A stretch of DNA of 32,000 nucleotides from Nostoc sp. PCC 7120 = FACHB-418 (GCF_000009705.1 NC_003272.1:3960001-3992000), one strand, 5' to 3'. Counted from the stretch's first letter, positions 6,301 through 29,846 are shown. Notes: generated by a model from the letters alone, not told the origin. A program made the numbers and translations.

Positions 6301-6462
6301 AGTCCCAGGGGAAGAAGCAGGATATAAATTGCGGCTGCCTTCGGCTTGGACGGGTTGGATACCAATAGCTACAATACCTACACAAAGAGCTGCAATTCTA
6401 CTAAAAGATTTGATATTTTGGATGTTTTTGGATGTTTTCTGATTAGTTGGGCTGCGATTCAT
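3307..6462 (-). CDS. Secreted 1051-aa surface protein: Gly/Asn/Thr/Ser-rich beta-rich N-terminal region, two tandem DUF11 repeats and a C-terminal DUF11-like domain
   Basis: ATG start. Signal-peptide-like N-terminus (...IAALCVGIVAIGIQPVQA/EG). Two repeats of ~129 aa each carry the DUF11 signature (TVTDILPTGIIPT...WTCTISGQTVTCSRSDVLNPG and TVTDNLPTGLTPT...WNCSISGQTVTCSRSDVLNPG). The C-terminal module reads LGDELEYTIYF...DLVPNNVDF. It is last in a five-gene co-directional cluster. Confidence 0.85.
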   Translation of the reverse strand: MNRSPTNQKTSKNIQNIKSFSRIAALCVGIVAIGIQPVQAEGSRNLYPASSPGTAYRANLEWRTEQTGNLITRRTLLKVYAQAGEYILLGSSAVGVTRTSNNVTTTGDIYVYNPNLVTGQVGSETFPSTPSFQCTSQTGGKINSRTEELAGPRSINGTGNTSGYTPCYYQAPSTGIYDVVIFGPAGFNASGDGGITAEINLTSSTNFDSSQGSSVAAWDVTVRSSTSSTTDSTGRLFSYYLALFTGGNGRPVYSNVYPVTTDGYRYRTEIRGLDPNGFVLYGNEVGFFDSDGVSTLYRNVVGTNGNVSNIQGGASLARPQFPTFFNLLDPNALAFINRYDRFGSFQGVGITTNPIPPSVTNPNFTGNLSGNNSKVGNGGTFSFNSTVTGTYEIVIRGDGSTDFDPKNPQNRVLRGYMNSSGTQNVSWDGRNNAGNFFPVGTNYLFNIRINAGEYHFPVLDAENNFSGGPTVTLLNPPASYPTDLPGFGPTTGFYDDRVYRTKNGTIVHVGATQANIDNNAPLCGVGPTVPAFSNQITGFDTRTNQRAFGQASGGNTNTVCTGSFGDTKGLDQWTFFPSNAANNFLNIVSPDLTVSKTHTPTDFVRGSTGTYVINVPNSGGDVTDGTPVTVTDILPTGIIPTAATGNGWTCTISGQTVTCSRSDVLNPGANYPNININVTIDSGITATSVTNTATVSGGGDGDNTNNTSPPDIANIITPPDLSMNKTHTGNFNQGDTGQIYTLIVSNASGAGATDGNTVTVTDNLPTGLTPTAVSGTGWNCSISGQTVTCSRSDVLNPGGSYPAITLTVDVANNAPSTLINIAIVNGGGDITPGNNTDDDQTNITGNNNTPNLILVKRITRVNNQDLTDIVDGMSNVATTATNYVAAPRDTDDNDAKWPVGYLRGLINAGTVKLGDELEYTIYFLSNGQDNATKVQLCDLVPNNVDFLAAAFNGLSPNDGGLTGSDQGIAMAVGSTIPTVYFSNVADSDRATFYPANDPNTPSVCNNTGSNTNGALVVEITRNLILPNLPPATSSGNPAESYGFVRFRGKVK
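3925..4695 (-). repeat. Tandem duplication of a ~387-nt DUF11 repeat unit inside the 1051-aa gene
   Basis: The units begin at PDLTVSKTH (about 4695) and PDLSMNKTH (about 4308). The 17-aa core ISGQTVTCSRSDVLNPG is identical in both. It is encoded near 4082-4135 and 4463-4516 with only a few silent or near-silent differences. Confidence 0.8.
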
Positions 6463-6529
6463 AATTTGATAGCTTTTAATTGTTAATTGCTGTTTGTTAT
6501 AACCCAGATAAAGATATAATTTTGCTGTA

Positions 6530-11925: not shown

Positions 11926-12086
11926 TGAATTTTTCCTCTCAGAAGCGCCCTGTTATTTATGAATAAAGGCATTTGATTGATACAAATATGAGCCGTCGTT
12001 ATCGAAACTTGGAACAACGGCTAACTATTGATTAGATGTTTTCTAGTAGTGCTAATTCGTAATTCGCAGTTAAGAATTAGTATTAA

Positions 12087-12629
12087 TTAACGCACCTGGG
12101 TTAAATAGGTCGCTTTGACTGTAGTTTTAGCTGCTACTAATGGCAGTTGCAAACGAATATTGGTATAAGCTGTAGCTGGTGCTGGTTTAATTTCGACCTT
12201 ACCCCCAGGGAGGGTAACTTTAACTGTGGGATTCTCAACAAAACTGCGCCCGCCGTCAATGCTGTAAGTAATTTTGGCTGCTTTATTGGCAATATCAACT
12301 GATTTCAGCACATATACCATGCCTTTAGGGATTGGTTGATTGAGAGTCAAATTTTTGATTGAGCGATCGCTTTTATTTTCGCCATTTAAGGTATAACGCA
12401 ACACATCCCCAGGCTTGACCACAGCTTGACCTTGTAATGCTTGCCAAGCAACCTTCTGTTTCCCCTGCTGATCCTTGCTAATAACCTGTTTTTCCGCCCC
12501 TAAGCGCAATTGCAATTGTGGTTGATTTTGAATGCTTTGAGCAACTACACTTCCTGGGATGTGATTGATAAATGGTGCGGTAGCAATCAGCGCAAATGCA
12601 CCCACACCAGCGATAAGAACACCCTTCAT
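12087..12629 (-). CDS. Small secreted single-domain DUF11-like protein (180 aa from ATG 12629)
   Basis: The ORF track opens at TTG 12644, but I prefer ATG 12629 (MKGVLIAGVGAFALIATAPF...VVAQ/S signal peptide). The DUF11-like core is PGDVLRYTLNGENKSDRSIKNLTLNQPIPKGMVYV. Confidence 0.75.
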   Translation of the reverse strand: MKGVLIAGVGAFALIATAPFINHIPGSVVAQSIQNQPQLQLRLGAEKQVISKDQQGKQKVAWQALQGQAVVKPGDVLRYTLNGENKSDRSIKNLTLNQPIPKGMVYVLKSVDIANKAAKITYSIDGGRSFVENPTVKVTLPGGKVEIKPAPATAYTNIRLQLPLVAAKTTVKATYLTQVR

Positions 12630-12671
12630 GACAAATAACCCCAAAAAACTATTAGATATATGATTCCCATG

Positions 12672-12703
12672 TTTGCAGTCAGGACTTAAGTCCTGACTGC
12701 AAA
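12672..12703 (-). promoter_or_regulatory. Perfect 32-nt palindrome (14-16 bp stem-loop) between the 859-aa and 180-aa genes
   Basis: The sequence tttgcagtcaggactt|aagtcctgactgcaaa is its own reverse complement. It lies 13 nt after the stop of the 859-aa gene and ~43 nt before ATG 12629. No U-tract follows it immediately on the transcribed strand. Confidence 0.7.
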
Positions 12704-12715
12704 CTGTGCAGAACT

Positions 12716-15857: not shown

Positions 15858-15896
15858 CAACGACAGTTGACGGACAAACAGGGAAAGCTAGTTATT

Positions 15897-17201
15897 ATGA
15901 CGCAGGCAACATCTACACCCACCCAAACGACCAATGCCACCCTTTCAGCGTTGAAGTGTAAGGAATGTGGCGCAGAATATGAACTGAAAGCTACTCATGT
16001 GTGTGAGTATTGTTTTGGCCCGTTGGAAGTGAAGTATGACTACAATGCCTTACGTCTCTCTGTTACCCGCGAAAAAATTCAAGCTGGGCCAAACTCAATT
16101 TGGCGTTATCGCCCTTTTCTGCCTGTCACAACTGACAATGTAATTGATGTGGGAACAGGTATGACTCCCCTGGTGCGTTCCCATCGTCTTGCCCGTCGCC
16201 TGGGTCTAAACAAGCTTTACATTAAAAATGATGCAGTGAATATGCCCACCCTCAGCTTTAAGGATCGGGTGGTATCCGTCGCCCTGTCTCGCGCTAGAGA
16301 GTTGGGATTCACCACAGTTTCTTGCGCTAGCACTGGTAACTTAGCAAATTCTACAGCAGCGATCGCCGCCCATGCCGGTTTAGATTGCTGTGTGTTCATC
16401 CCCGCAGATTTAGAAGCTGGCAAAATTCTGGGTAGCTTAATCTACAGTCCTACCCTCATGGCGGTGAAAGGCAACTATGATCAAGTCAATCGCCTTTGTT
16501 CGGAAGTAGCTAATACACACGGTTGGGGCTTTGTCAATATTAACTTACGCCCCTACTATTCCGAAGGTTCCAAGACTTTGGGCTTTGAAGTTGCCGAACA
16601 ACTAGGCTGGGAACTACCAGATCATATAGTTGCACCTTTGGCTTCTGGTTCACTGTTCACCAAAATCTATAAAGGCTTCCAGGAATTCGTGGAAGTTGGT
16701 TTGGTGGAAGGGAAGAAAGTCCGTTTCAGTGGCGCACAGGCGGAAGGTTGTTCACCCATCGCCCAAGCCTTTAAAGAAGACAGAGACTTTATTAAACCAG
16801 TGAAACCGAATACAATTGCCAAATCAATTGCGATCGGTAATCCAGCAGATGGTGTTTATGCTGTTGATATTGCCAAGAAAACTGGCGGTAATATTGAATC
16901 AGTGAATGATGCAGAAATTATCGAAGGTATCAAGCTACTGGCAGAAACCGAAGGCATCTTTACAGAAACAGCTGGTGGTACAACTGTTGCTGTGCTGAAA
17001 AAATTGGTAGAAGCTGGCAAAATTGATCCAGACGAAACCACCGTGGTTTACATCACTGGCAATGGTTTGAAAACCCAAGAAGCCGTACAAGGCTACGTTG
17101 GCGAACCTTTGACAATTGATGCCAAATTAGATAGTTTTGAGCGTGCTTTAGAGCGTTCACGTACCCTCGACCGCTTGGAATGGCAACAAGTCCTCGTTTA
17201 G
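15897..17201 (+). CDS. Threonine synthase family PLP enzyme with an N-terminal Zn-ribbon (ThrC or a MetM-like paralogue)
   Basis: The ORF track opens at TTG 15867; I use ATG 15897 (MTQATSTP...). It has a CxxC...CxxC ribbon (CKECGAEYELKATHVCEYC) and a PLP-lysine motif (PTLSFKDRVVS). STGNLANS and GNGLK motifs, typical of ThrC-fold enzymes, are also present. Confidence 0.85.
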   Translation: MTQATSTPTQTTNATLSALKCKECGAEYELKATHVCEYCFGPLEVKYDYNALRLSVTREKIQAGPNSIWRYRPFLPVTTDNVIDVGTGMTPLVRSHRLARRLGLNKLYIKNDAVNMPTLSFKDRVVSVALSRARELGFTTVSCASTGNLANSTAAIAAHAGLDCCVFIPADLEAGKILGSLIYSPTLMAVKGNYDQVNRLCSEVANTHGWGFVNINLRPYYSEGSKTLGFEVAEQLGWELPDHIVAPLASGSLFTKIYKGFQEFVEVGLVEGKKVRFSGAQAEGCSPIAQAFKEDRDFIKPVKPNTIAKSIAIGNPADGVYAVDIAKKTGGNIESVNDAEIIEGIKLLAETEGIFTETAGGTTVAVLKKLVEAGKIDPDETTVVYITGNGLKTQEAVQGYVGEPLTIDAKLDSFERALERSRTLDRLEWQQVLV

Positions 17202-17240
17202 TAATTAGTCAGTGGTCATTAGAAACTAACAACCGACCAC

Positions 17241-17261
17241 TGTCAACTGTCAACTGACCAA
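17241..17261. repeat. STRR-like heptamer tract (TGTCAAC TGTCAAC TGACCAA)
   Basis: Three consecutive heptamers lie in the 73-nt spacer between the thrC-like and moaD-like genes. Heptamer tandem repeats are characteristic of heterocystous cyanobacteria. Confidence 0.5.
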
Positions 17262-17274
17262 TAATTAATTAACT

Positions 17275-17550
17275 ATGGCTGTAAAAGTTTTAGTCCCTAC
17301 CGCTCTGCAAAATTTCACAAATAATCAAGCTGCTTTAGAATCTAGTGGTAGCAGTATTGCAGAACTCTTAGATTCTTTAGAAAAAAGCTTTCCCGGTATT
17401 AAAGCGCGGTTGTGCGATGATAATGGACAGCCACGGCGTTTTTTGAATTTATATGTAAACAGCGAAGACATCCGCTTTTTGGATGGGACGGCTACACCTT
17501 TGAAAGATGGTGATGAAGTCAGTATTGTCCCTGCTGTTGCAGGTGGTTGA
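17275..17550 (+). CDS. MoaD/ThiS-family ubiquitin-like sulfur-carrier protein (C-terminal Gly-Gly)
   Basis: 91 aa, ending ...[14 protein letters not shown]-stop. The beta-grasp length and the terminal GG are diagnostic of MoaD/ThiS/CysO-type carriers. Confidence 0.8.
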
Positions 17551-17626
17551 GACTGCAAAATTTAAGTTCATCCGGTTATTCATACTTTTTCCCCTAATTG
17601 TGGGGGAGAAAGTTATATATTATTAA

Positions 17627-17971
17627 TTAAACTTGAGTAAGTTTTTGTAGCCAGTAATTACTATTATCAATGGTGAGAATAATTCTTTCGTAAGATTCAT
17701 CCTGTAGCTCAATATTTAAATAGCTATTATCTCGATTTACGTACCAGAACTCTTTACCTCGCTCAGTATAATAAGTACCTGCTTTAATTATCCCAGGAAT
17801 AAAGCTACCTGGTGCGCGTAGTTCTTTCCAACTACTTTGAGGTTTGGTGATTGTCGTTTGTTTGATATGCGCTAACGGTATTAGCCAAAGTTTTTGGAAA
17901 CGAACAGCCAGCAATTGCTCTTGCCATGTAAATTCTAGTTGTAATTTGTCCTCAACTATATTCAACTGCAT
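17627..17971 (-). CDS. Hypothetical protein, possibly a bacterial PH-like domain
   Basis: The ORF track begins at TTG 18040; I prefer ATG 17971 (MQLNIVEDKLQLEF...). I recognise no family with confidence. The mixed beta/alpha pattern and ~114-aa size fit small bPH-type domains. Confidence 0.5.
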   Translation of the reverse strand: MQLNIVEDKLQLEFTWQEQLLAVRFQKLWLIPLAHIKQTTITKPQSSWKELRAPGSFIPGIIKAGTYYTERGKEFWYVNRDNSYLNIELQDESYERIILTIDNSNYWLQKLTQV

Positions 17972-18107
17972 TTCCAACCTCTTCCTCACTATTTTTACTT
18001 CTATTGTTATCCAAAGACCCTTGCTTGAGGATATATTCAATGAAATTATTCACGAAATTTGATTGAATATAATCTGATTGGCCAAAGTTGGTAGTCGTAG
18101 TAGATAA

Positions 18108-19160
18108 ATGAATTTAAAAATGATTAATAGCAACTTAGAACAGTTTGCCAGTGACAACTACGCTGGTATTTGTCCAGAAGCAATGAACTATATGATTCAA
18201 GCTAATCAAGGTAGTGCGCCAGCTTATGGAAATGATGAATGGACGCAAAAAGCAACAGACTATTTTCGAGAACTTTTTGAAATTGATTGCGAAGTATTTT
18301 TTACTTTTAACGGTACAGCAGCAAATTCATTATCTTTAGCTGCACTTTGTCAGTCATATCACAGCGTTATTTGTCATGAAACAGCACATATAGAAACAGA
18401 TGAATGTGGCGCACCAGAGTTTGCGTCTAATGGTTCTAAGTTGTTACTTGCTAAAGGAGAAAATGGTAAGTTAACACCACAAGAGATAGAGTCTGTAATC
18501 ACGAAGCGAGTTGATATTCATTATCCTAAACCAAAAGTAATTAGTATTACTCAAGCTACAGAATTAGGGACTTTATATTCTATAGAAGAACTTTTAGATA
18601 TTAAAAAAGTTGCCCAAAAGTATCAATTAAAAATTCACATGGACGGCGCACGCTTTGCCAATGCAGTTGCAGCCATGAATAAAAGTCCGGCAGAGATGAG
18701 TTGGAAAAGTGGCGTGGATGTATTGTGTTTTTGTGGGACAAAAAATGGTATGGCATTAGGGGAAGCCATTATATTTTTTAATCGAGCATTGGCAGAAGAT
18801 TTTGATTATCGTTGTAAACAAGCAGGACAATTAGCATCAAAAATGCGGTTTATTTCTGCGCCGTGGTTAGGTTTGTTAGAAACTGGTGCGTGGTTGAAAA
18901 ATGCTCAACACGCGAATCAATGTGCGGCTTATTTAGAGAATGAATTGTTAAAAATAGAAGGTGTGGAAATTATGTTTCCCCGTGAAGTAAATGCAGTTTT
19001 TGTCAAACTGCCAGAGCAAGTTATCAATGGCTTAAAAGCAAACAATTGGTTGTTTTATACTTTTATTGGGGTAGGTGGTGTACGCTTTATGTGTTCTTGG
19101 AATACCACCAAAAGCAGAATTGATGAATTAGTTGGAGATATTAAAACAGGATTGGGCTAA
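18108..19160 (+). CDS. ltaE: Low-specificity L-threonine aldolase (beta-eliminating lyase family, PLP-dependent)
   Basis: The 350-aa product carries FASDNYAGICPEAM, FNGTAANSLSL, HMDGARFANA and the PLP-lysine segment CFCGTKNG. These match the motif order of threonine aldolases. Confidence 0.75.
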   Translation: MNLKMINSNLEQFASDNYAGICPEAMNYMIQANQGSAPAYGNDEWTQKATDYFRELFEIDCEVFFTFNGTAANSLSLAALCQSYHSVICHETAHIETDECGAPEFASNGSKLLLAKGENGKLTPQEIESVITKRVDIHYPKPKVISITQATELGTLYSIEELLDIKKVAQKYQLKIHMDGARFANAVAAMNKSPAEMSWKSGVDVLCFCGTKNGMALGEAIIFFNRALAEDFDYRCKQAGQLASKMRFISAPWLGLLETGAWLKNAQHANQCAAYLENELLKIEGVEIMFPREVNAVFVKLPEQVINGLKANNWLFYTFIGVGGVRFMCSWNTTKSRIDELVGDIKTGLG

Positions 19161-19393
19161 ATTGTGGGTAAGAGTAGCAGTCAATTTATGAGAAGCTAAA
19201 CTAATTATATAAATCATACTAAGTAAGACAAATACATAAGATTTTTCGATTACTGTGTATTGATTATTATCTATTTATCTCATGATTAAATAACTAATAA
19301 CTATTGACTGGCTATCCTATGTCAAAATGAAGGTAATTTATTACCTAAAGGTAAGCGATCGCTCTACAAGCTAGACAAAGGATAACCTGAGCA

Positions 19394-20023
19394 ATGGCAG
19401 ATCCAACCAATCAAAATCAACCGGGAGACACAGTTCCCAGCACTGTTGACCAGAAAGCCCCCACTGTCGCTGAAGAAAACGCCCCCAGCACTAGCGAACC
19501 AGTAGCGACAAACCTTCCTACTGCCAACACGCCAGACCCCGAAGCAGCGAACCCGAAGACTAACCCCAATACTGCTAAACCAACTGCTGCTGCTCCTAAG
19601 GAAGAAAAACCAGCCGCAGCCGCTAAAGCCGCGAAAAAAGAGAAAGCCCCATCTGTGGAAGACAAGCCATTCGTAGAGTTCATGGAGCAAGACTACTTGC
19701 CGGCTTTGCAAAAGGCAATTACTGCGGAAGGAGTGAAAGATTTACAGCTTTCTTTCGCCAAGCAAAAGCTCCCCATTGCTGGTTTGTCATCGGCGGAAGA
19801 ATACTGGCAAGTAATTGGTAGTTGGCAAAACGGTCAGCGCCAGTTTAATGTGTATTTCCCCGATGAAGATATCCAGGGCAAAAAAGGTTTTTCTTGCAAT
19901 GAGGGCAGAAGACCTAGCACCCTGGAGTCATTTTTAATCGATGAACGCAAAATTACACTGGATATGTTGGTATCTCGTCTGGTGTATCGCTTAAACGGTC
20001 AGAAGTGGCTGGGTAGAAACTAG
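19394..20023 (+). CDS. Conserved cyanobacterial protein with a disordered Pro/Ala/Lys/Glu-rich N-terminal ~95 aa and a folded C-terminal ~110-aa domain
   Basis: 209-aa ORF with an ATG start. From memory only, the C-terminal domain (KPFVEFMEQDYLPALQKAI...WQVIGSW...FNVYFPDEDI...) resembles the DUF2996 family, which includes the NDH-1 subunit NdhV. This is unverified. Confidence 0.6.
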   Translation: MADPTNQNQPGDTVPSTVDQKAPTVAEENAPSTSEPVATNLPTANTPDPEAANPKTNPNTAKPTAAAPKEEKPAAAAKAAKKEKAPSVEDKPFVEFMEQDYLPALQKAITAEGVKDLQLSFAKQKLPIAGLSSAEEYWQVIGSWQNGQRQFNVYFPDEDIQGKKGFSCNEGRRPSTLESFLIDERKITLDMLVSRLVYRLNGQKWLGRN

Positions 20024-20031
20024 GTTTTGTT

Positions 20032-20064
20032 AGATTCCCGACTTCTTCCAGAAATCGAGAATCT
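20032..20064. terminator. Stem-loop between convergent genes (possible bidirectional terminator)
   Basis: agattcccga (20032-20041) pairs with tcgagaatct (20055-20064), 9 of 10 bp, around a 13-nt loop. It sits in the 45-nt gap between the stops at 20023 (+) and 20069 (-). There is no clear U-tract. Confidence 0.3.
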
Positions 20065-20068
20065 GACC

Positions 20069-20563
20069 CTAGTTAAGTTCATAAAAGTGATAGGTGACGG
20101 CTCCAGTAATGGGGTCGTTATCTATTTTGACGTAACCTGATTTCAGCATTTCCTTGAGTGTGGCTTCCACTTCTGTAAAGCTGGCTCCCGTGGCTTTGAC
20201 TCCTTGAGTCACAGTTAAACCACCGCCTTTGGTTTCTGCGGCTTCAATTAGTTTGACTATGAGTTGGTCTTTGGTTAAACCCTGGGTTTGGGATGTAGTG
20301 ATGGGCTGATTTAGGGGTACACCTAAGGGAGAAACACCAGCTTTCAGTCTCAGTTGCTGTTCATATTCGTCAACCATACCAGGCATGAGAAACAAATCCA
20401 CAAACTGCCCAATGCCAAATACTCCCCCTGTGCATAGCCACAACAAACCAGTACCAATTTTGCCGTTGTAGAGCCGATGTAGTCCTCCTAAACCAAGAAA
20501 CCAGGCCGCACTCAAAATGTAAGAGACAAGCACACGGTCTTTCTGCTGATGATTAACAGTCAT
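20069..20563 (-). CDS. TM2-domain membrane protein with a C-terminal soluble domain
   Basis: The N-terminal half has two helices carrying the TM2 pattern ([35 protein letters not shown]). The C-terminal ~70 aa are hydrophilic. Confidence 0.75.
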
Positions 20564-20767
20564 GTTGTGGTCAACCCCTTGGATTTACGCTTGTTTTCTG
20601 GGACAGTGTTTCGTTGCTGTTTTGCCCACTGTCGGTGATGACCGACCATCGGTCAGAAACCATCGCCAGATGCACAGAAATATTTGATAATTCTACTAAC
20701 TCCAAATTGAAAAAAGAATGCGACAGATATACAGACCCAAACGCTTGTCCTGTCTTGATTTTGTACT

Positions 20768-20905
20768 CCTTTGGAGAACCCGTACCCCTGCGGGGAAGCA
20801 AGCTACGCGTAGCGTCTCCAAAGGAAAAGGGTATTTTGTTGGCGCAAGCCTTCTCTACGAGACGCTACGCGTTGGCGTTAGCCTCTCGTAAGAGATGCCG
20901 AATTG
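20768..20905. repeat. Structured intergenic dispersed-repeat element with nested palindromes
   Basis: A 10-bp inverted repeat, cctttggaga (20768-20777) / tctccaaagg (20815-20824), encloses cccctgcgggg and the perfect palindrome gctacgcgtagc. A second inverted repeat pairs cgcgtagcgtctc (20806-20818) with gagacgctacgcg (20859-20871). The two ORFs predicted across it have no coding support. Confidence 0.6.
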
Positions 20906-21208
20906 GTATAACTCAATTGTAGTTAAGTACGCCAACTCGCGTTTGTTCCCTGCTCTGGTAAAGACGTAAAGCGAATGCTGAGAGTGAGGATTTGCCCGAT
21001 ACGTTAACCACTAATTTCCCAGAATCGATTCCGCAAATGTTGAACTATTGTTGCAACTCTTAACGTTTTGCCTACCAGTTTACCTCTGCACCTTGGTAGA
21101 CTGAATTTTATACAAACTAATTATTGTCGGCTGTTGCGCTTTGTGAGAGCCTAAACCTTGGTTCTTCGGGTGTACTCAAGATAATCAAGACAAAAGAGCA
21201 ATTAGGAC

Positions 21209-22285
21209 ATGGTAGATTCCCTAAAAAAACCAGGCTTTGAAGAAATCCGTCCGGGCGTTAAAGTCCCGGCAAAAGAAACTCTATTAACACCCCGGTTTTA
21301 TACCACTGATTTTGATGAGATGGCACGGATGGACATCTCCGTCAATGAAGACGAGTTACTAGCTATTCTGGAAGAATTCCGGACTGACTATAACCGCCAT
21401 CACTTTGTTCGGGATGCCGAGTTTGAAAAATCCTGGGATCACATTGACGGGGATACTCGCCGCTTGTTCGTAGAATTTCTCGAACGGTCTTGTACAGCAG
21501 AATTCTCCGGCTTTTTGCTTTACAAAGAACTTGGTCGCCGTTTGAAAGACAAAAGCCCAGTTTTGGCAGAGTGCTTTAACCTCATGTCACGGGATGAAGC
21601 GCGTCATGCAGGCTTTTTGAACAAAGCGATGTCAGACTTTAACCTGTCTCTCGACTTAGGGTTTTTAACTAAGAGCCGCAACTATACCTTCTTTAAGCCA
21701 AAATTCATTTTCTACGCTACCTACCTTTCGGAAAAGATTGGTTACTGGCGCTATATCACCATTTATCGTCACTTGGAAGCACATCCAGAAGACAGAATTT
21801 ATCCGATTTTCCGGTTCTTTGAGAACTGGTGTCAGGATGAAAACCGTCACGGAGATTTCTTTGATGCAATCATGAAATCTCAACCACAAATGTTGAACGA
21901 CTGGAAGGCGAAACTTTGGAGCCGTTTCTTCCTGTTGTCGGTGTTTGCGACGATGTATCTCAATGATATTCAACGTAAAGATTTCTATGCCACCATTGGT
22001 CTAGATGCACGAGATTACGACATCTACGTGATTAAGAAGACCAACGAAACCGCAGGTAGAGTATTTCCAATAATTCTGGATGTGGATAGCCCAGAATTTT
22101 ACGAACGCTTGGATATATGTGTTGAGAATAGCGAAAAATTGAGTGCGATCGCTAGCTCTAATACTCCCAAGTTCTTGCAATTCTTCCAGAAATTACCAGT
22201 ATTAGCCTCTACTGGCTGGCAATTATTACGCCTGTACTTGATGAAACCAATTGATGCTGTTTCCGCCCAAGGCGCAGCGCGTTAA
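21209..22285 (+). CDS. acsF: Mg-protoporphyrin IX monomethyl ester oxidative cyclase (aerobic cyclase, di-iron)
   Basis: The N-terminus is highly characteristic ([38 protein letters not shown]). Two di-iron ExxH motifs are present ([10 protein letters not shown] and [10 protein letters not shown]). The 358-aa length fits. Confidence 0.92.
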
Positions 22286-22308
22286 GTTGTAACATTTTTT
22301 CAATGCTC

Positions 22309-22341
22309 AGTGGTTCTGTTTTACACAGAGCCGCTTTTTTT
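22309..22341 (+). terminator. Rho-independent terminator of acsF
   Basis: AGUGGUUCUG (22309-22318) pairs with CAGAGCCGCU (22326-22335) over 10 bp, including G-U pairs, around a 7-nt loop. A run of 7 T follows directly (22335-22341), 24 nt after the stop codon. Confidence 0.7.
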
Positions 22342-22488
22342 ATGTAAAAAATCTACCACTTGTTTACCTTGAAGACTTACACCCCTACACCCCTATACCC
22401 TATCTCATCAATATCACCCTCAAGGGTACTGTCAGTATATGGGGATCAGCCGTTAGGTTAGTTATGTAGTTTCCCAGTAAACAAGTGT

Positions 22489-23322
22489 ATGACAGACCTA
22501 ATTGACCCATCTCAAATTATTGTTAGACCAAGACCAACTTTACTTTCAACTTTTGAACTGTTAGTTAAACCAATTGCTCCTGTGGGTTCTGGCCCTAATG
22601 TCGTAGCGCGTACAGTTATCCAAGGTTACTTTTTAACAATTGCCAACACCAGTAACTCAGATATCAAAGTACGGTTGCAATTTACTGCCACAACACCAGA
22701 ATTAGATTTAACTAATACTGTCACTATCACCGATGTTCAAGGTGTGAATGACTTTTCTGACCTCACCCCCATTGTTGGTGATCCTAAAAGATTTATCTTT
22801 AATTTAAGTATTGGTGCTAACGACACAGCTTTATTTACCCTATTGCCTGATGTCAGCAAGCCAGAGGTCATCAAAGCTAACTCTCTGGAAGTGCGGGGCT
22901 ATGTAGAAATCGCTTTAACATCTCCATCTAGTTCTGTGAGGTTGCTGCTGACACCAGAACATCGTGGTACATTTGTACCACAGAGCTTTGATACTGTTCG
23001 CGCTCCTGATTTTGACCAACTAGTGTATGCTTTGCCTACATCCACCGGACAAAGTGAGTTTACGCTGACAGGGCCAGCCAAACCCAACAAGGAACTCAAG
23101 TTAGAAATTAAAGAGATTGAGAAACTAGTTGAAAACAAACTGGCAGAAATATTACCACTAACACCCCAAACACAAATACCAAATGACCTACAGCGAGTTA
23201 TTGGTCTGATGGCTCAACGTTTGGATGAGTTAGAACAGCGCACTGTTAGTAACGGCAATGGACGCGCTTTCATCCAAGTAGAGGAACGCCCCAGCGTTGG
23301 TCACCACGTAGTTAATCAATAG
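22489..23322 (+). CDS. Hypothetical 277-aa protein: beta-rich N-terminal ~190 aa plus a Lys/Glu-rich helical tail; first gene of the ATP-grasp operon
   Basis: ATG start and no signal peptide. Beta-sandwich-like alternation is visible (VIQGYFLTIANTSNSDIKVRLQFTAT, EVRGYVEIALTS). The tail reads KELKLEIKEIEKLVENKLAEIL...LDELEQR. It ends 11 nt before the next gene. Confidence 0.7.
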   Translation: MTDLIDPSQIIVRPRPTLLSTFELLVKPIAPVGSGPNVVARTVIQGYFLTIANTSNSDIKVRLQFTATTPELDLTNTVTITDVQGVNDFSDLTPIVGDPKRFIFNLSIGANDTALFTLLPDVSKPEVIKANSLEVRGYVEIALTSPSSSVRLLLTPEHRGTFVPQSFDTVRAPDFDQLVYALPTSTGQSEFTLTGPAKPNKELKLEIKEIEKLVENKLAEILPLTPQTQIPNDLQRVIGLMAQRLDELEQRTVSNGNGRAFIQVEERPSVGHHVVNQ

Positions 23323-23333
23323 GGGCAGTATTC

Positions 23334-24041
23334 ATGATAGTAATTGTCGCCAGTCGCCACGATAAAGCCGCCGAGGCACTGGCTGCTCGTTGGATGGCTT
23401 ATGATGCCAAACTTTTAACAGTTGAAGATTTGTCGGTAGCGGGATGGCGACATTACTTAGATTCTCCCCTTGATTCTACTGCTGTAATTGGTGGGCAGGC
23501 GATCGCAGTTGCCAAAATTACTGGCGTTCTCACCCGCCTACCTTACCTTCCTGAACATGAATTGCTGCATATTGCCCCAGAAGACCGCACCTATGTGGCA
23601 GCAGAAATGAATGCTTTCCTCGTTTCCTGGTTATCCGGGTTACAATGTCCCGTTTTAAATCGACCAACACCAACAGATTTACTGGGGCCTAATTGGCGGC
23701 CACAGCAATGGGTTTATGCAGCCGCTCAAATTGGTATACCTGTGCGTCCGGTCAGACGACAAGTGGCATTATCTACACCTATCCAGGCTCAGGTTTTAGA
23801 AAAACCACCTGTAACTGTGACCGTTGTAGGTAATCGTTGTCTTGGTCAAGTAGATGATAACCTGGCGACTCATGCCAAACGCCTCGCTTGTGCGGCGAAT
23901 GTTGACCTGTTGACAGTGCAGTTTACCAGCAGTGACGCTAACGCAGAGTTTTTAAATGCTGAGTTGTGGGCTGATATTTCTCACCCAGAAATAGCTGATG
24001 CCATTTTAGAACATTTGAGTGGAGGGGATGGCAAATGTTGA
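23334..24041 (+). CDS. Truncated ATP-grasp paralogue (pre-ATP-grasp and central region only; probably non-catalytic)
   Basis: 235 aa. The N-terminus (MIVIVASRHDKAAEALAARW...) and middle (AEMNAFLVSWLSGLQCPVLNRPTP...WRPQQWVYAAAQIGIPVRPV) parallel the downstream ATP-grasp protein (MLILLWGLPEDSPLAAVY..., ...ALVINRPAAMAPNGSKPYQLEQIRQLGFRIPDT). The C-terminal nucleotide/Mg-binding half is missing. Its stop overlaps the next start by 7 nt (ATGTTGA). Confidence 0.65.
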   Translation: MIVIVASRHDKAAEALAARWMAYDAKLLTVEDLSVAGWRHYLDSPLDSTAVIGGQAIAVAKITGVLTRLPYLPEHELLHIAPEDRTYVAAEMNAFLVSWLSGLQCPVLNRPTPTDLLGPNWRPQQWVYAAAQIGIPVRPVRRQVALSTPIQAQVLEKPPVTVTVVGNRCLGQVDDNLATHAKRLACAANVDLLTVQFTSSDANAEFLNAELWADISHPEIADAILEHLSGGDGKC

Positions 24042-25021
24042 TTTTGTTGTGGGGACTTCCTGAGGATTCACCTTTAGCCGCCGTGTATTCAGAATTGATA
24101 AGTCTAGGCATTCCCACCATACTGCTGAACCAACGAGATATTTTAGCAACAGAAATTGAATTATTTGTGGGGGAATCAGTGCAAGGTGTCCTTCGGACTC
24201 CACAGCAAACAATTGACCTGAGTGCAGTCACGGCTGCTTACATTCGCCCCTACGACTCGCGTCGCCTACCCCAAATAGAACAAGCTGGTATAAATAGTTT
24301 AGCTTGGCAGCAGGCGATCGCGATCGATGATACTTTATTATGTTGGTCGGAAATTACCCCAGCCTTGGTAATTAACCGTCCCGCCGCGATGGCTCCTAAC
24401 GGTTCCAAACCCTACCAACTAGAGCAGATTCGTCAGTTAGGCTTTCGGATTCCGGACACTTTAGTGACTACAGACCCCAACGCTGTGCAAGCTTTTTGGC
24501 AACAACATGGCAATATTATTTACAAATCCATCAGTGGTATTCGCAGTAAAGTATCCCGCCTCAACCCAGAACATCTAGAACGGCTTGCCAATGTATCCTG
24601 GTGTCCGACTCAGTTCCAGCAGTATATCCCAGGTAAAGATTATCGAGTTCATGTAGTAGGTACAGAAGTTTTTGCTAGTGAAGTGATTTCCTCAGCCGAT
24701 GATTACCGTTATGTAGCCCAAGATGAAGAGTCTACAGCTATCCGCGCTTGTGAAATTCCCCAAGAGGTAGAAGCAAAATGTCAGATATTGGCTCAAGCCA
24801 TCAACTTACCCCTTTGCGGTATAGATTTACGCCAAACACCAGACGGTGCATGGTACTGCTTTGAAGTCAATCCTTCTCCTGGGTTTACCTACTATGAATA
24901 TGCTACCAGTCAACCGATTAGTAGAGCGATCGCTCATTTACTCGCAGCAGGTAAAATAGATACGGCAATTACTGAAACGCACGGGAGCAAATTACCAAAA
25001 ATTAGCGTCAGTAACACTTAA
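24035..25021 (+). CDS. ATP-grasp ligase of the microviridin-maturase type (MvdD/MdnC-like)
   Basis: 328 aa. The motif order is a pre-ATP-grasp N-domain, then KPYQLEQIRQLGFRIPDTLVTTDP, IIYKSISG (ATP-binding Lys region) and CPTQFQQYIPGKDYRVHVVGTEVFASEV. These are followed by DDYRY and CGIDLRQTPDGAWYCFEVNPSPGFTYYE (Mg/ATP E-x-N site). As I recall it, this matches MdnC/MvdD-family macrocyclases better than RimK. Confidence 0.75.
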   Translation: MLILLWGLPEDSPLAAVYSELISLGIPTILLNQRDILATEIELFVGESVQGVLRTPQQTIDLSAVTAAYIRPYDSRRLPQIEQAGINSLAWQQAIAIDDTLLCWSEITPALVINRPAAMAPNGSKPYQLEQIRQLGFRIPDTLVTTDPNAVQAFWQQHGNIIYKSISGIRSKVSRLNPEHLERLANVSWCPTQFQQYIPGKDYRVHVVGTEVFASEVISSADDYRYVAQDEESTAIRACEIPQEVEAKCQILAQAINLPLCGIDLRQTPDGAWYCFEVNPSPGFTYYEYATSQPISRAIAHLLAAGKIDTAITETHGSKLPKISVSNT

Positions 25022-25043
25022 AAACCATCCAGATGTAACCCCG

Positions 25044-26426
25044 ATGCTCAAAGGTTTGAGAAGCCAACTACCACTGCTGTTAACATTCTGCTTATTTACA
25101 AGTCTGCTACCTGCTTCTGGCTCAGTTTTATGTTCTGCTGTTGCCTATGAGAGATATGAAACAGCAGGTAGTAAAGGTACTGATGGGCGGAAGGGTAGAA
25201 ATGGCCGTGATGGTGACAATCAAACTATCTTTGTTGATGGTTCACCAGTAAATCTTGACCTATCTGGTGAAGATGGTGAAGACGGTGAAGATGGCGAACG
25301 AGGTGACAGACCTGATTGCAGGAAGCAACCCAACAACCCCAACCATGACCTTCATGCAGGTAATGGTGGTGCAGGTGGGAACGGCGGTAACGGTGGGAAT
25401 GGCGGTAACGGCGGTTTACTGACTGTTTACTACGCAAATTCGGCTGACTTGCGAAAAATTTTCGTGCGTGCAACTCCTGGAGACGGTGGGCGAGGCGGTC
25501 GGGGTGGTAATGGTACAGTCGGTTGTAATTGTCGGCGACGCTATTGGGAGATAGAAACCTGTAAAGGTACTCCGGGTACTGCTGATTATAAATGTACAAA
25601 AAAACGTTACAGGTGTTACGACGGCAAAGATGGGCGTGATGGTAGCGACGGACAGAATGGTGAAAGAGGGCGTTTAGGAATTCTCAGTATTGTTAATAGC
25701 AAAGAACCCTTAGTCGCTGACACTCCCACCTTGACAGTGAATTTGGCTGAAATTGCGGGGAAAAAGTTAAATCTATCGAAGAACAAATGGAATCTGCGAC
25801 CAGGGGCAACTTCTTTACTTTCGCCTGGTTCTGTGATTGGCGATGAGTACCGAGAATTTGCCCAGCGTTTAGAAGAATCTTTTCAAATAGTCTGGCAGGA
25901 GAAACAACCCATCAGTAGTTTTGCTAATCAAAGCCTGACTGTAAGTTTGAATGATGATAAGCAAGTAGAAGTCAATTTTCCTGAAGATTTATGGCTTGCT
26001 GGTAGCACCAGTAGCCAGGCTAACTTAACAACATTTACTGTCGACCATGCTATTCCCAAACAAGATGTAACGCGGTTAGCTGTGGCGGAATTTGCCGATG
26101 CGGGAGAAAAGCTGAACTTAAAAATAGTTGATTTAGCTGCGAAATCTGATGCGCTTCAGACTCAGTTTCGCGTCAAATTCCGGACAAAAGATAATTCCGG
26201 TGGCTTCTCTGACTACAAAACTGTATATGAAGGTGATATCCCCAAGGAACTTGTCAACCGTGACTATAACCGTTTTACTTTGGCTTTAGGTAAGTTAAAA
26301 ATTCCATCTGATGCCCTAAGTCCTGGCGTAAATGTTGACATTGAAATATTAGCTACCCGTTCTTTGGGAGGACGTTCTGCCAAGCAGACTATTAATTGGC
26401 AGGGGTCAATTCGTCGAGGAATATAA
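25044..26426 (+). CDS. Secreted 460-aa protein with interrupted collagen-like G-X-Y runs, a (GNG)n tract, a Cys-rich segment and a ~240-aa C-terminal domain
   Basis: Signal peptide MLKGLRSQLPLLLTFCLFTSLLPASG. The G-X-Y runs are GSKGTDGRKGRNGRDGDN, GEDGEDGEDGERGDR and GKDGRDGSDGQNGERGRLG. It also carries GNGGAGGNGGNGGNGGNGG and a CNC...C...C...C cluster. It starts 22 nt after the ATP-grasp gene. Confidence 0.8.
   Translation: MLKGLRSQLPLLLTFCLFTSLLPASGSVLCSAVAYERYETAGSKGTDGRKGRNGRDGDNQTIFVDGSPVNLDLSGEDGEDGEDGERGDRPDCRKQPNNPNHDLHAGNGGAGGNGGNGGNGGNGGLLTVYYANSADLRKIFVRATPGDGGRGGRGGNGTVGCNCRRRYWEIETCKGTPGTADYKCTKKRYRCYDGKDGRDGSDGQNGERGRLGILSIVNSKEPLVADTPTLTVNLAEIAGKKLNLSKNKWNLRPGATSLLSPGSVIGDEYREFAQRLEESFQIVWQEKQPISSFANQSLTVSLNDDKQVEVNFPEDLWLAGSTSSQANLTTFTVDHAIPKQDVTRLAVAEFADAGEKLNLKIVDLAAKSDALQTQFRVKFRTKDNSGGFSDYKTVYEGDIPKELVNRDYNRFTLALGKLKIPSDALSPGVNVDIEILATRSLGGRSAKQTINWQGSIRRGI
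25359..25415 (+). repeat. In-frame 9-nt tandem repeat (GGY AAY GGY) encoding (GNG)n
   Basis: The sequence ggtaatggtggtgcaggtgggaacggcggtaacggtgggaatggcggtaacggcggt runs from codon 106 of the 460-aa gene. Confidence 0.7.
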
Positions 26427-27091
26427 AGCGGAAAGGGATACTCCTGAAGAATAGGAAAAGGTGCAGGGGGCAGGGAGATGGGGAGAAGTTTCCCCCTGCC
26501 TCTTCCGGTCACAAGTAACAACGAAGAGGGAAAGAGGTTTTTTTCTCTCATTCGTGGTGTAAGCAAATCATATTAGATACTTGCTTCATTAAGTAATTTC
26601 CCTGAACTTTATGATTTCTTTACAGAAACAACCAAAAAAATGGCTATTCTTCACCTGAAAAACAAAGTAGCTGCTTATTAGAGGGATTACACTTAGTCTG
26701 GATAAAATTTAACCAAACCGCATTGATAAATTCTATGTACAGATAATATTACCTAACCTGTAAAATATTCATTCCTCTCCGTGTAACCTTCATTAGCTGA
26801 GGAGAAAAATCATAGATTTATCTGACCTATTTTTATGGGAAAGTCACTGGCTTTTGAAAAGAAGTCGGATAAGAATTTCGTAATCCATAAACAGGATACT
26901 ATGAAGAGTTTATATTTGTATACTGATTCTTATATTAAGGATGGTAGACTTACTGAGGTGCAACTCTTTTAGATAAATTGATTGTGGTGTTCCATTACAT
27001 AGGAAATAATTCTTATCACTACGTAAGTGTGAAGGATTGATCAGTACTGAAATTTCGTAATCTACTCATGCTCAAATACTGAGAAAATATT

Positions 27092-27371: not shown

Positions 27372-28868
27372 TTAACTAGATTGTCGCCAATGTATTGGTA
27401 TTTCCACATTATCAGGTAAGCGAGTCGTGCGATCGCCTATGGCAATGCTAACTTGTTGAGGTTTTAAATTTTTGACTCCTGTGAGAATTGCTCCGGCTAA
27501 TTTAACATCACAAAAGTTAGTATCAGATAGGTTAGCCCCTACGAGATTGCACTGAAAAAGATTTGCTTGATAGAGGCTGGCTCTTTGTAAATTTGCTCCC
27601 ATCAAATTGGCTTTACACAAGTCTGCTTCCGTCAAACTGGCCTCCGTGAAGTCAACAAATAACATCTCCGCTTGTTGTAACTTGGCTGCATTTAAATTCG
27701 CTTCAGCAAGATTCGCCCCGTTGAGATTAGCACCTTGTAAATTTGCGCCAATGAGACCACAAAGAGATAGATTAGCTTTACCAAGTTTTGCTCCTTGTAG
27801 GTTAGCTAAGAACAGCTTTGCACCGCAAAGATTAGCCAATTTCAATATTGCGTGTTGCAAATTGACTTTATAAAGATTAGCACCAGGCAAATTCGCTGCA
27901 CGCAGACTTGCACCCATAAGATTAGCACTGCGTAAATTTGCACCACCAAGTTCTGCACGATTTAAATTTGCGCCTTGTATATTTGCTCCTTGCAAATTTG
28001 CTTTCAAGAAATTAGCCTCAAACAGAATAGAGCCAGCTAATTCTGCACCCTCAAGATTTGCTCCACTGAAATCACAACCCCGCAAATCTGCTCCGCGAAA
28101 ATCACAACCCCGCAAATCTGCTCGTTGTAAATTTGCTCCCAATAGTTCTACTCGCCTGAGATTAATATTACGCAAATCAAGTCGTTTATCTGCCTCCTCT
28201 TGTAAGTAGTTACGTCTACCAACAACCGTCAAAGCTACTTGAATATCCCTACGAATTTTTGGTGATTCCTCATGAACATTCAAGGGCAACTGTGGTGTTC
28301 GACGCTCACCTTGCTTATACCTACTCAGGGATGTTGGCTGTGATTCATCTTCCTTCTGCTCTTCTACTTCTCGAACAGCAGCATTCTCTCGAATAAAAGC
28401 TGTCAGGATTTCGATAACTGTCCAGTGTTCTTGGGGAAAATCTTGGGCAACTTTTTCTAACACATAAATTGCCCCTGTGCGGGTTTCAATTTTGTCATGT
28501 CCAAGTTGGGTAACCGCAGTCATCAGACGTTCCGAAATTAATCTATCTTCAGATAGTTTGGCATTTTGAATGCTAATTTCTAAGTTTTTTTCGGCAGCCA
28601 AAGCACTTTTACTAATGACATCTACGCGCTTGGCTGCGTAGTAAGCATTAATCATTACCCCCAATCCCAAAAAAATAATGGCAGTAATTGTTAGTGCTTG
28701 ATTTCTAGATTGTAATTTTTGTTGTATGGTCAACCCTTGAGGGTTGGAAGATGCAAATAAAATCACAGCTATAGTAACGGCAAATATCACGGTTATGCCA
28801 ATCAACCAACGCCATAATTTGTCTGTCTTATTAGCAGGCATAATCGTATAATTCCTTACCACACACAA
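27372..28868 (-). CDS. Membrane-anchored pentapeptide-repeat protein (2 TM helices, helical HEAT-like module, ~55 pentapeptide repeats)
   Basis: The A(N/D)LxG/A pentads are long and uninterrupted (ANLQRADLRGCDFRGADLRGCDFSGANLEGAELAG...). There are two N-terminal hydrophobic helices. The start may instead be ATG 28841 (MPANKTDK...). Confidence 0.85.
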   Translation of the reverse strand: MCVVRNYTIMPANKTDKLWRWLIGITVIFAVTIAVILFASSNPQGLTIQQKLQSRNQALTITAIIFLGLGVMINAYYAAKRVDVISKSALAAEKNLEISIQNAKLSEDRLISERLMTAVTQLGHDKIETRTGAIYVLEKVAQDFPQEHWTVIEILTAFIRENAAVREVEEQKEDESQPTSLSRYKQGERRTPQLPLNVHEESPKIRRDIQVALTVVGRRNYLQEEADKRLDLRNINLRRVELLGANLQRADLRGCDFRGADLRGCDFSGANLEGAELAGSILFEANFLKANLQGANIQGANLNRAELGGANLRSANLMGASLRAANLPGANLYKVNLQHAILKLANLCGAKLFLANLQGAKLGKANLSLCGLIGANLQGANLNGANLAEANLNAAKLQQAEMLFVDFTEASLTEADLCKANLMGANLQRASLYQANLFQCNLVGANLSDTNFCDVKLAGAILTGVKNLKPQQVSIAIGDRTTRLPDNVEIPIHWRQSS

Positions 28869-29087: not shown

Positions 29088-29846
29088 TTACTCTCTATTA
29101 GAAGTGTCAGCCGTAGTAAATTTTACTTCTCGTAGATTTGCCCCATCAAATATTGTCTCATTTAAAATTACTTCCTGCAAATTAGCTAAATATAAATTTG
29201 CTCCTGCCAAATTTGTCCCCGTGAGATTTGCCCCAACTAGGTTTGCAGCACTGAGGATGGAGCCAGATAAATTTGCCCCAGCTAGGTTAGCGCCAGAAAG
29301 GTTAGCGGCGGTCAAAATTGCCCCACAGAGATTGGCTTGTAATAAATTTGCCCCAGCGAGATTAACACGATAGAGATTGGCGTTTTCTAGATTGGCTTGG
29401 CTGAGATTCGCCCCCTGTATATCGATATGGCTCCAATCTAATTGTTGATTTTCTGGGTCTTGCTTTGTATCCCTTTGAACAATCACAGTTAAAGCAGCTT
29501 GAATTTCTGCACTAATTGATGATGTTAGCTGTGCGGACGAAATATTATTAACACAATTGCGGATAAAATCACTGAGAACTTCCATGATTAGCCAGTGATA
29601 TTTTGGATAATCATGGGCTATTTGCTTTAACTCATAAATGGCTTTGAGCCTGGTTTCTATTGTTTGATTGTGTTGCAGGTCTCCTATAGCTACTTGTAAG
29701 CGTTGGGTGATGCTATTTCGCCCACCGGGGGCAATCTTTTTTTGACTAGAGAAAACTATCTCATCAATGAGATTCTCTATTAAATTGTTGTGTTGTATCT
29801 TTCCTGCAACTGTACGATAAACATTAAAAATCATGGCTAACATCAT
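29088..29846 (-). CDS. Pentapeptide-repeat protein, a shorter paralogue of the preceding gene without the TM region
   Basis: The pentads include GANLSQANLENANLYRVNLAGANLLQANLCGAILTAANLSGANLAGANL... The pre-repeat module RLKAIYELKQIAHDYPKYHWLIMEVLSDFIRN...IQAALTVIVQR matches RTGAIYVLEKVAQDFPQEHWTVIEILTAFIREN...IQVALTVVGRR of the 498-aa protein. Confidence 0.85.
   Translation of the reverse strand: MMLAMIFNVYRTVAGKIQHNNLIENLIDEIVFSSQKKIAPGGRNSITQRLQVAIGDLQHNQTIETRLKAIYELKQIAHDYPKYHWLIMEVLSDFIRNCVNNISSAQLTSSISAEIQAALTVIVQRDTKQDPENQQLDWSHIDIQGANLSQANLENANLYRVNLAGANLLQANLCGAILTAANLSGANLAGANLSGSILSAANLVGANLTGTNLAGANLYLANLQEVILNETIFDGANLREVKFTTADTSNRE

Follow-up and report, generated by a model that had tools for sequence, protein, structure and literature searches.

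The graspetide synthetases MdnB and MdnC (microviridin), PsnB (plesiocin), CdnC (chryseoviridin) and PruB combine an ATP-grasp fold with an N-terminal pre-ATP-grasp domain, and the ribosomally made partner on which such an enzyme acts is encoded next door. By now there are also examples of precursors that are large, of synthetases that depend on a partner and of Lys-Asp/Glu lactams that are repeated (PMC13097080, PMC12848669): the corallotide precursor CorA is a 22-kDa protein with five KxxxD isopeptides, rosaritide involves the partner-dependent synthetase pair MirB/MirC (both Carter et al. 2026, PMC13097080), and the MyxF study describes (KxxE)n lactams and an ATP-grasp enzyme that is inactive alone and needs paralogues (PMC12848669). 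Furthermore, Makarova et al. 2022 (Biol Direct 17:7, PMC8939145) described an ATP-grasp “branch 8” whose loci contain a truncated, inactive ATP-grasp and no predictable precursor; an uncharacterised cyanobacterial protein found in these loci (their cluster 948) was guessed to be a peptidase, and peptidases were proposed to supply substrates encoded elsewhere. Here we analyse a relative of these systems in a 32,000-nucleotide stretch of the genome of Nostoc sp. PCC 7120 = FACHB-418 (GCF_000009705.1, NC_003272.1:3960001-3992000), which as a whole is called the window below. We propose that its genes alr3301, alr3302 and alr3303 (A, B and C) make up a three-part protein-modification module, in which a graspetide-synthetase-like enzyme, C, and its degenerate paralogue, B, are linked to the C-terminal tail of A, the tail probably being the cognate target or recognition element of the pair.

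An earlier note on this DNA had read the locus as a four-gene operon of microviridin type that lacks a credible short precursor and whose gene set differs from all described clusters. The last of these claims was too strong, branch 8 having already been described (PMC8939145); judged by the description of its loci, the present family is very probably that branch, and cluster 948 is probably A. The gene anatomy itself stands as the note had it: four + strand open reading frames (ORFs) of the sizes stated there, with 11 nt between the first two, a 7-nt overlap between the second and the third and 22 nt before the fourth, as follows.

22489-23322, + strand: gene A (alr3301, BAB75000), 277 aa, carrier protein with a candidate C-terminal target tail
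23334-24041, + strand: gene B (alr3302, BAB75001), 235 aa, predicted catalytically dead ATP-grasp paralogue and obligate partner of C
24035-25021, + strand: gene C (alr3303, BAB75002), 328 aa, graspetide-synthetase-like ATP-grasp ligase
25044-26426, + strand: gene D (alr3304), 460 aa, Gly-rich “collagen-like protein” with a signal peptide, a neighbour outside the conserved module

The names follow from the matches of A, B and C to BAB75000-BAB75002 of Nostoc/Anabaena PCC 7120 and from alr3300 being the upstream cyclase gene. No family was found for A, B, D or the tails in Pfam, NCBIfam, PADLOC or PHROGs. A conserved short precursor is likewise missing beside the operon, as had been suspected; ORFs of 33 aa (22360-22461) and 45 aa (26835-26972) were rejected as classical precursors, their only counterparts lying at the near-identical locus of N. 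parmelioides.

The 328-aa protein C contains all the ATP-grasp motifs that had been quoted for it. The invariant ones read SKPYQ, YKS.SG.RS, WCPTQFQQY, DYRVHVVG, ADDYRY and CFEVNPSP, and within ADDYRY the residues D223-Y224-R225, invariant in the C family, align with the D-F-R of PsnB, a motif described as critical in graspetide synthetases (PMC13097080). K125, K164, E277 and N279 are invariant in the family too, as are the nucleotide- and metal-binding motifs. Three maturase models of NCBIfam were run on C (TIGR04187, TIGR04184 and TIGR04185); it scores 146.9 bits with TIGR04187 against a curated cut-off of 350, 100.7 against 475 with the MvdD model and 95.1 against 425 with that of MvdC. The RimK models score lower still, with 54.6 bits against 143.4 for TIGR00768 (rimK_fam) and 19.7 against 331 for PRK10446, and in Pfam the generic RimK ATP-grasp domain alone passes, at 27.9 bits against 21. 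When C was compared by phmmer with the sequences in the PDB, graspetide synthetases alone matched (PsnB at 7.8e-24, PruB at 1e-17, CdnC at 7e-17, MdnC at 6.5e-16, MdnB at 7e-14, and AMdnB). The AlphaFold2 (AF2) model of C, with a mean predicted local distance difference test score (pLDDT) of 86.6, has an ATP-grasp fold with a pre-ATP-grasp N-domain, and in a Foldseek search ranks 1-32 were all graspetide synthetases (E 5e-25 to 7e-17, template-modelling (TM) score 0.59-0.78), RimK first appearing at rank 33 with an E value of 2e-15. Since graspetide models, PDB sequences and Foldseek matches all outrank RimK, C groups with the graspetide maturases, with RimK well behind, as the earlier note had anticipated. 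As judged from its sequence and predicted fold, C is thus closest to the graspetide synthetases while lying outside every curated maturase family, and the reading of alr3303 as “RimK / ribosome modification” within the translation-stress regulon of TrcR is thereby corrected.

The 235-aa protein B had been called a truncated ATP-grasp paralogue, and this is borne out by hhalign, which aligns B with C end to end with a probability of 97.3% and an E value of 2.5e-11. B lacks some 60-80 residues of the central ATP-binding region and has NAELWAD in place of the Mg/ATP motif FEVNPSP. Because both the central ATP-binding segment and the EVNPSP/FEVNPSP motif are gone, B is predicted to be catalytically dead. 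Its family is large in itself and comprises 1,784 clusters at 50% identity, nearly all of 225-255 aa. Most likely, B forms a complex with C in which it would serve substrate binding or stabilisation.

To follow these genes across genomes, one genome per species was scanned, which gave 78 loci spread over more than ten phyla (Cyanobacteria, Myxococcota, Actinomycetota, Acidobacteriota, Nitrospirota, Proteobacteria, Verrucomicrobiota, Chloroflexota and candidate phyla). Over these loci the identity of C is 40-94%, and between phyla 45-60%; B adjoins C in about 76 of the loci. The iterated profile of A matches an ORF beside B-C in most loci, and does so via the last ~90 residues of A alone; the third partner of the module is therefore the ~90-aa C-terminal tail of A (residues ~195-277) and not its beta-sandwich. 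It is thus the Lys/Glu tail of the 277-aa protein, put forward earlier as the first candidate substrate, that comparative genomics links with the enzyme pair. The 78 loci share no further conserved gene, and in particular no peptidase, exporter, amino-acid-supplying or carrier gene. The proposed four-gene neighbourhood therefore shrinks to three genes: D adjoins A-B-C only in the window and in two close Nostocales (L002 and L003; L numbers denote individual loci), and is absent from the closest relative, N. parmelioides (L001), whose locus is 94-97% identical. When L001 8987-9461 is set against window 25021-26835, A, B, C and the downstream small ORFs are kept and the whole 460-aa gene is gone, so that the difference is a recent insertion or deletion. 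Elsewhere D lies ~48 kb from A-B-C (Nostoc sp. S4) or ~580 locus tags off (Calothrix NIES-2100), and its family of 385 matches is confined nearly entirely to Nostocales. Unlinked in most genomes and absent from L001, D was ruled out as a member of the module.

The tail travels on strikingly different proteins. The pattern F[IVL]xxx[ED]RP occurs near the C-terminus of an ORF beside B-C in 58 of the 78 loci, as compared with ~9 stray matches elsewhere in the 1.2 Mb six-frame translation of the same loci; with the variant motifs found in most of the remainder, tail and B-C occur together in almost all 78. The cyanobacterial beta-sandwich protein is the carrier in 23 loci. At least 15 genome loci out of the 78, and 7 loci from metagenomes, have the tail on a DUF6519 fibre, a protein of ~900-1,300 aa with a DUF6519/eBAP5 anchor that is encoded after Baseplate_J and Tail_P2_I genes and near eCIS_core toxins; it is by this anchor that one class of tail fibres is defined among extracellular contractile injection systems (eCIS; Nat Commun 2026, PMC12923769). 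Streptomyces and Amycolatopsis have the tail on proteins of 510-760 aa encoded 5' of a TcA-like ABC-toxin gene, and other carriers are K/E-rich proteins of 150-630 aa and free peptides spanning 41-111 aa, the smallest being the 41-42-aa peptides of two Acidobacteriota (L045 and L050), for example MTGKRKKSQGSKKKGLASGRSFIRPEERPDADRSVLKKRGK. Finally, in six loci with HopA1 and APH genes a ~100-aa ORF directly 5' of B has G-x-A-F-[I/T] ahead of the same helix as is found in other tails. Neither these ~100-aa ORFs nor the 41-42-aa ones match any curated precursor family.

In two separate association tests the tail and the enzyme pair occur together without exception. In the cyanobacterial A family, B-C lies beside 25 of 25 members that bear the motif (the 23 cyanobacterial genome loci and two further ones with B-C immediately downstream) and beside none of the five motif-less members examined (Fisher p = 7e-6). 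For the fibres, 80 metagenomic loci were fetched via the DUF6519 N-terminal anchor, that is, independently of both tail and B-C, and a fibre was counted if it was complete and followed by 2.5 kb of sequence or more; B and C accompany all 6 tail-bearing eCIS fibres, whereas neither is found beside any of the 30 tail-less ones (Fisher p = 5e-7). A scan of viral contigs gave no matches to DUF6519 fibres. Moreover, the variants of the motif follow the phylogeny of C, one of them, HFIxxxLRPDLSxGALKQE, occurring in nine loci that are confined to one clade of the enzyme.

Two of these settings merit a closer description. In L032, L034, L053 and L058 (Amycolatopsis and Streptomyces), at ~8.2-16.9 kb, B-C is followed by the tail-bearing 510-760-aa protein and this by the TcA-like toxin gene, whose product of 2,000-2,170 aa has VRP1, ABC_toxin_N and Neuraminidase-like domains. 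In L029, L037, L052, L055, L061 and L075 (Acidobacteriota, Bryobacterales and a betaproteobacterial metagenome-assembled genome), B-C is flanked by convergent genes of the HopA1 effector family and for an APH phosphotransferase, and in the ~100-aa upstream ORF a segment reading TPV[E/K]T[K/E]P[D/E] is conserved that resembles a graspetide core of Thr, Lys and acidic residues.

Aligned tails consist of three elements, namely a block rich in Lys and Asp/Glu, a variable linker that often includes an amphipathic helix, and a motif a few residues from the C-terminus, G-x-[A/S/P]-F-I-x3-[E/D]-R-P-x-V-G. In the window they are placed as follows.

23080-23139, + strand: A residues 198-217, KPNKELKLEIKEIEKLVENK, K-[D/E]-x repeat with a period of 3 that recurs across loci, candidate cross-link (core) region
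23182-23241, + strand: A residues 232-251, NDLQRVIGLMAQRLDELEQR, amphipathic helix common to most tails (AF2 helix 233-254)
23260-23301, + strand: A residues 258-271, GRAFIQVEERPSVG, C-terminal signature motif found by regular expression (pLDDT below 50), candidate recognition (“follower”) element

The Lys-acid block sits 20-64 residues N-terminal of the motif. Across loci its spacing from Lys to Asp/Glu is enriched at +1 (z 25.6), +4 (z 10.2) and +7 (z 7.6), and that from Asp/Glu to Lys at +2 (z 9.1) and +5 (z 7.7); K-xxx-D is the spacing that is cross-linked in corallotide (PMC13097080). In A homologues without B-C the block and the motif are lost together, while the helix is retained. The helix, which in the window reads LMAQRLDELEQR, keeps an L-x-Q-R-L-D/E-x-L-E-x-R pattern from cyanobacteria to the ~100-aa peptides of Acidobacteriota. 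The AF2 model of A gives the tail two helices of low confidence (201-221 and 233-254) and leaves the motif disordered, with pLDDT below 50, so the tail is predicted to be exposed and accessible to an enzyme. In some tails (L049, L054, L041, L053 and L027) the K-[D/E]-x triplet mostly has Gly as its last residue, as in GKDGKDGKDGKE, and these read like the charged collagen-type G-X-Y repeats that end trimeric fibres.

These observations can be accommodated in a model in which C is the active ATP-grasp ligase, of graspetide-synthetase type, of a heteromeric B-C enzyme. The motif, with or without the helix, would dock the tail on B-C and, as a C-terminal “follower”, so take over the part of an N-terminal leader. 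C would then use ATP to phosphorylate side-chain carboxylates of Asp and Glu, whereupon nearby Lys amines would attack to give isopeptide (omega-amide) cross-links, either within one tail or between the tails of an oligomer. The tail would be a portable tag, carried by peptides, cyanobacterial beta-sandwich proteins, eCIS fibres and proteins encoded beside TcA. We infer all three of its central components, the tail as substrate, the B-C complex and the isopeptide chemistry, and do not hold them with equal confidence: formation of Lys-Asp/Glu isopeptides is a possibility to which we give somewhat less than an even chance, and the model as a whole, as a compromise between our trust in the target and in the chemistry, is slightly favoured. 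Its boldest form, in which the pair staples the distal tails of toxin-delivery proteins (eCIS fibres and Tc-toxin partners) and of a stress-induced cyanobacterial protein by Lys-Asp/Glu isopeptides within or between chains, as a portable modification of folded proteins akin to those of ribosomally synthesised and post-translationally modified peptides and not as small-peptide synthesis, we put forward only tentatively and consider unlikely to hold in full.

Several observations weigh against this model. C falls far under the curated cut-off of every graspetide-maturase model, even the best (146.9 versus 350), and for this reason its chemistry could differ from that of the maturases. The Lys-acid block is not universal, since the 41-42-aa peptides of L045 and L050, rich in Lys and Arg, have no acidic residues outside the motif, and the ~100-aa peptides of the HopA1/APH loci have no such block and carry the motif before the helix; which residues would be modified is uncertain on that account. 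In one clade of C the acid before R-P is replaced by Leu or Asn. The charged period-3 block could also be a mere spacer, and deletion of alr3301-03 in a trcR mutant caused no phenotype in the assays reported (PMC10272220).

B-C might recognise the tail and yet perform another chemistry on it, such as polyglutamylation of the RimK/TTLL kind, ligation to an amine (for instance of a cell-envelope component) or the joining of subunits through the Glu or Asp beside R-P. The shortfall of C below all graspetide cut-offs and the position of RimK/LysX-type ligases as its next structural neighbours would be in keeping with this, and so would the acid flanking R-P, which is the most conserved carboxylate of the tail ([E/D]RP, or RPD in the variant clade) and, in the minimal peptides of L045 and L050, marks the only site with acids; oligomeric extracellular machines are, moreover, carriers that covalent joining would suit. 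We still regard a different chemistry as rather unlikely, given that every PDB sequence match of C and each of its top 32 structural matches is an intramolecular side-chain cyclase, that C retains the D-[F/Y]-R motif of graspetide synthetases, and that the genes needed to supply an amino acid or a carrier are not co-conserved. Alternatively, the carriers could be oversized precursors from which a peptidase frees the modified tail as a graspetide-like product, a reading not far from the proposal of Makarova et al. on substrate supply by peptidases. Makarova et al. found branches 7 and 8 to be strongly linked to peptidases (PMC8939145), free tail versions of 41-111 aa do exist, and hydrolases are met in single cases, C being fused to DUF1350 in Leptolyngbya ohadii (L087) and an alpha/beta-hydrolase gene lying 3' of C in Microcoleus (L086). 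However, the window contains no peptidase, exporter or hydrolase and the 78 loci no conserved one, the tail is not preceded by a conserved site for cleavage such as GG, and a tail at the distal end of an eCIS fibre is easier to read as a structural feature, all of which makes a released product quite unlikely. Tail-bearing proteins might also merely recruit or regulate B-C, with the substrate encoded elsewhere, as the resemblance of motif and helix to a binding element, the dispensability of the Lys-acid block in some loci and the failure of Makarova et al. to find a precursor (PMC8939145) would allow. Carriers that range from 41 aa to ~1,300 aa and have the tail alone in common fit a substrate tag and not a regulator, however, and no other gene is co-conserved, so that we judge this possibility improbable.

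Two further explanations follow from existing annotation and gene order. Genome records and the TrcR study name alr3303 as RimK, the ribosomal protein S6 glutamate ligase, and this name agrees with the Pfam match and with the presence of the operon in a translation-stress regulon together with rtcB and rsgA (PMC10272220). RimK also has an ATP-grasp fold and modifies a full-size protein at its C-terminal tail. It is, however, only 17-18% identical to C, its Foldseek E value of 2e-15 compares with 5e-25 for the best graspetide synthetase, both RimK models remain well under their cut-offs while graspetide models and structures score far better, and RimK has neither a dead paralogue nor a partner with the tail motif, whereas C is strictly linked to B and to tail proteins, those of eCIS fibres and Tc-toxin loci included, none of which is ribosome-related. 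That alr3303 is RimK is therefore very improbable. The secreted collagen-like protein D had been the second substrate candidate, beginning 22 nt 3' of C with no terminator between them and containing charged G-X-Y runs. It is neither a member of the module nor, with hardly any probability left to it, the substrate: besides being unlinked from A-B-C in most Nostocales and missing from the closest relative, it has no tail motif, it bears a signal peptide when B and C have none, and it is outside both the published operon and the de-repressed neighbours (PMC10272220).

If the cross-linking model is set beside the known systems, C resembles its best matches, MdnB/MdnC, PsnB, CdnC and PruB (21-28% identity, TM 0.68-0.78), in fold, in its N-terminal domain and in having a ribosomally made partner next door. 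It differs from them in falling under the curated cut-offs, in being unusually conserved and in being always paired with a dead paralogue; its partners are for the most part full-size proteins, the element presumed to serve recognition lies at the C-terminus, and the candidate core has Lys and Asp/Glu and no conserved Thr or Ser. The large precursor (~22 kDa) and repeated Lys-Asp isopeptides at i to i+4 of corallotide (CorA/CorB), the dependence of the rosaritide synthetase (MirB/MirC) on a non-catalytic partner, and the repeated Lys-Glu lactams (MyxF) and paralogue-dependent ATP-grasp of PMC12848669 each recall one feature of the present module. In contrast to these systems, the partner B is a degenerate ATP-grasp and not a SurA-like protein, the putative substrates are up to 1,300 aa long, with structural proteins of injection machines among them, and the repeats are K-[D/E]-x triplets. 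Branch 8 as published shares the truncated inactive ATP-grasp, which is B, and the missing short precursor; what differs is that a neighbour's C-terminal tail emerges here as the conserved partner and that eCIS fibre, TcA and HopA1 contexts are found. Most eCIS fibres with eBAP5/DUF6519 have neither the tail nor B-C, and their catalogue (PMC12923769) mentions no ATP-grasp genes; a literature search found no paper in which ATP-grasp genes or RimK are linked to eCIS, to contractile injection, to baseplates or to tail fibres. What appears to be new is the conserved tail tag, together with its portability and its link to toxin-delivery machines, the enzyme branch being already known as an orphan. 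If the tail is indeed the substrate, this very widespread orphan branch of ATP-grasp enzymes would gain its missing “precursor”, and enzymes of graspetide type would act on C-terminal tags of full-size proteins. Since eCIS fibres set targeting and are being engineered, an unrecognised modification of the fibre tip could affect their stability or binding.

With respect to expression, alr3301-alr3303 has been described as a co-transcribed operon by reverse-transcription PCR, and its promoter is bound by the repressor TrcR, as demonstrated by electrophoretic mobility shift assay and footprinting; deletion of trcR de-represses the operon, which chloramphenicol, spectinomycin and streptomycin also induce, and the same study, which took alr3303 as RimK, placed it in a translation-stress regulon alongside rtcB and rsgA (all PMC10272220). 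As the earlier note had remarked, a strong terminator-like hairpin (22309-22335) with a T-run lies ~150 nt 5' of the first ATG, and it sets acsF apart from the module.

22309-22345, + strand: intrinsic-terminator-like hairpin and T-run ending acsF (alr3300), 11-bp stem with 5 G-C pairs, then TTTTTTT
22465-22472, + strand: candidate TrcR box and -10 region, TGTAGTTT, 17 nt 5' of the alr3301 ATG

The octamer TGTAGTTT agrees at 7 of 8 positions with the published TrcR site of the trn operon, TGTAGTAT (PMC10272220). It is a candidate only, because 8-mers that match the site equally well are not rarer than chance in the window. Should it overlap the -10 box as in that paper, the leader of the alr3301 mRNA would be very short or absent.

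The remainder of A agrees with the picture, drawn earlier, of a beta-rich protein with a Lys/Glu-rich tail, the AF2 model showing a beta-sandwich at residues 17-193 with pLDDT above 90.

22537-23067, + strand: A residues 17-193, cyanobacteria-specific beta-sandwich carrier domain (AF2), with invariant TPEHRGTF and QGYFL motifs

Foldseek searches of PDB and BFVD returned only generic beta-sandwich matches for this domain (TM at most 0.28), and it was accordingly placed in no fold family. Homology between it and the C-terminal regions of eCIS fibres, suggested by an iterated hidden Markov model of A, was rejected by hhalign (probability 0.4%), and because this clean profile-profile test rejects it, the carriers have only the tail in common. 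The domain is also found without tail and without B-C. The order PALP enzyme-DUF2996-AcsF-A-family gene (window 15867-23322; L082, L084, L086) is kept from Nostocales to Microcoleus and Coleofasciculaceae, and it persists at loci whose A homologue is tail-less and not followed by B-C; further A homologues without the tail are divergent and lie beside hemC (porphobilinogen deaminase). By virtue of the AcsF synteny and the hemC adjacency, the beta-sandwich domain has two independent neighbours from the tetrapyrrole pathway, be this functional or mere synteny. The fusion of C to a C-terminal DUF1350 in Leptolyngbya ohadii (L087 5560-7677) is a 705-aa protein, and a free-standing DUF1350 gene lies directly 3' of the tail-less A homologues beside hemC (L080, L081 and L085, ~4900-6800), so that DUF1350, which we take to be a member of the alpha/beta-hydrolase clan, is tied to the A family with or without an ATP-grasp.

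As to the rest of the window, scans with Rfam models and for tRNAs found no RNA features, and none of its 32 kb contains genes of an eCIS or any other contractile injection system, the locus thus lying outside any eCIS cluster. Downstream of the module, two pentapeptide-repeat proteins of 498 and 252 aa are encoded on the - strand (27372-28868 and 29088-29846). A run of very large - strand genes at 3307-15295 encodes proteins of 1,051 aa with DUF11 repeats, 1,289 aa with a weak Porin_4 match, 509 aa with DUF11 and SdrD-B-like domains, 185 aa, and 859 aa with DUF7925, and resembles a cluster for the assembly of a cell-surface adhesin or fibre. The pyridoxal-phosphate enzyme of the PALP family (15867-17201) shows a short N-terminal match, at residues 30-54, to the phage NinF motif.

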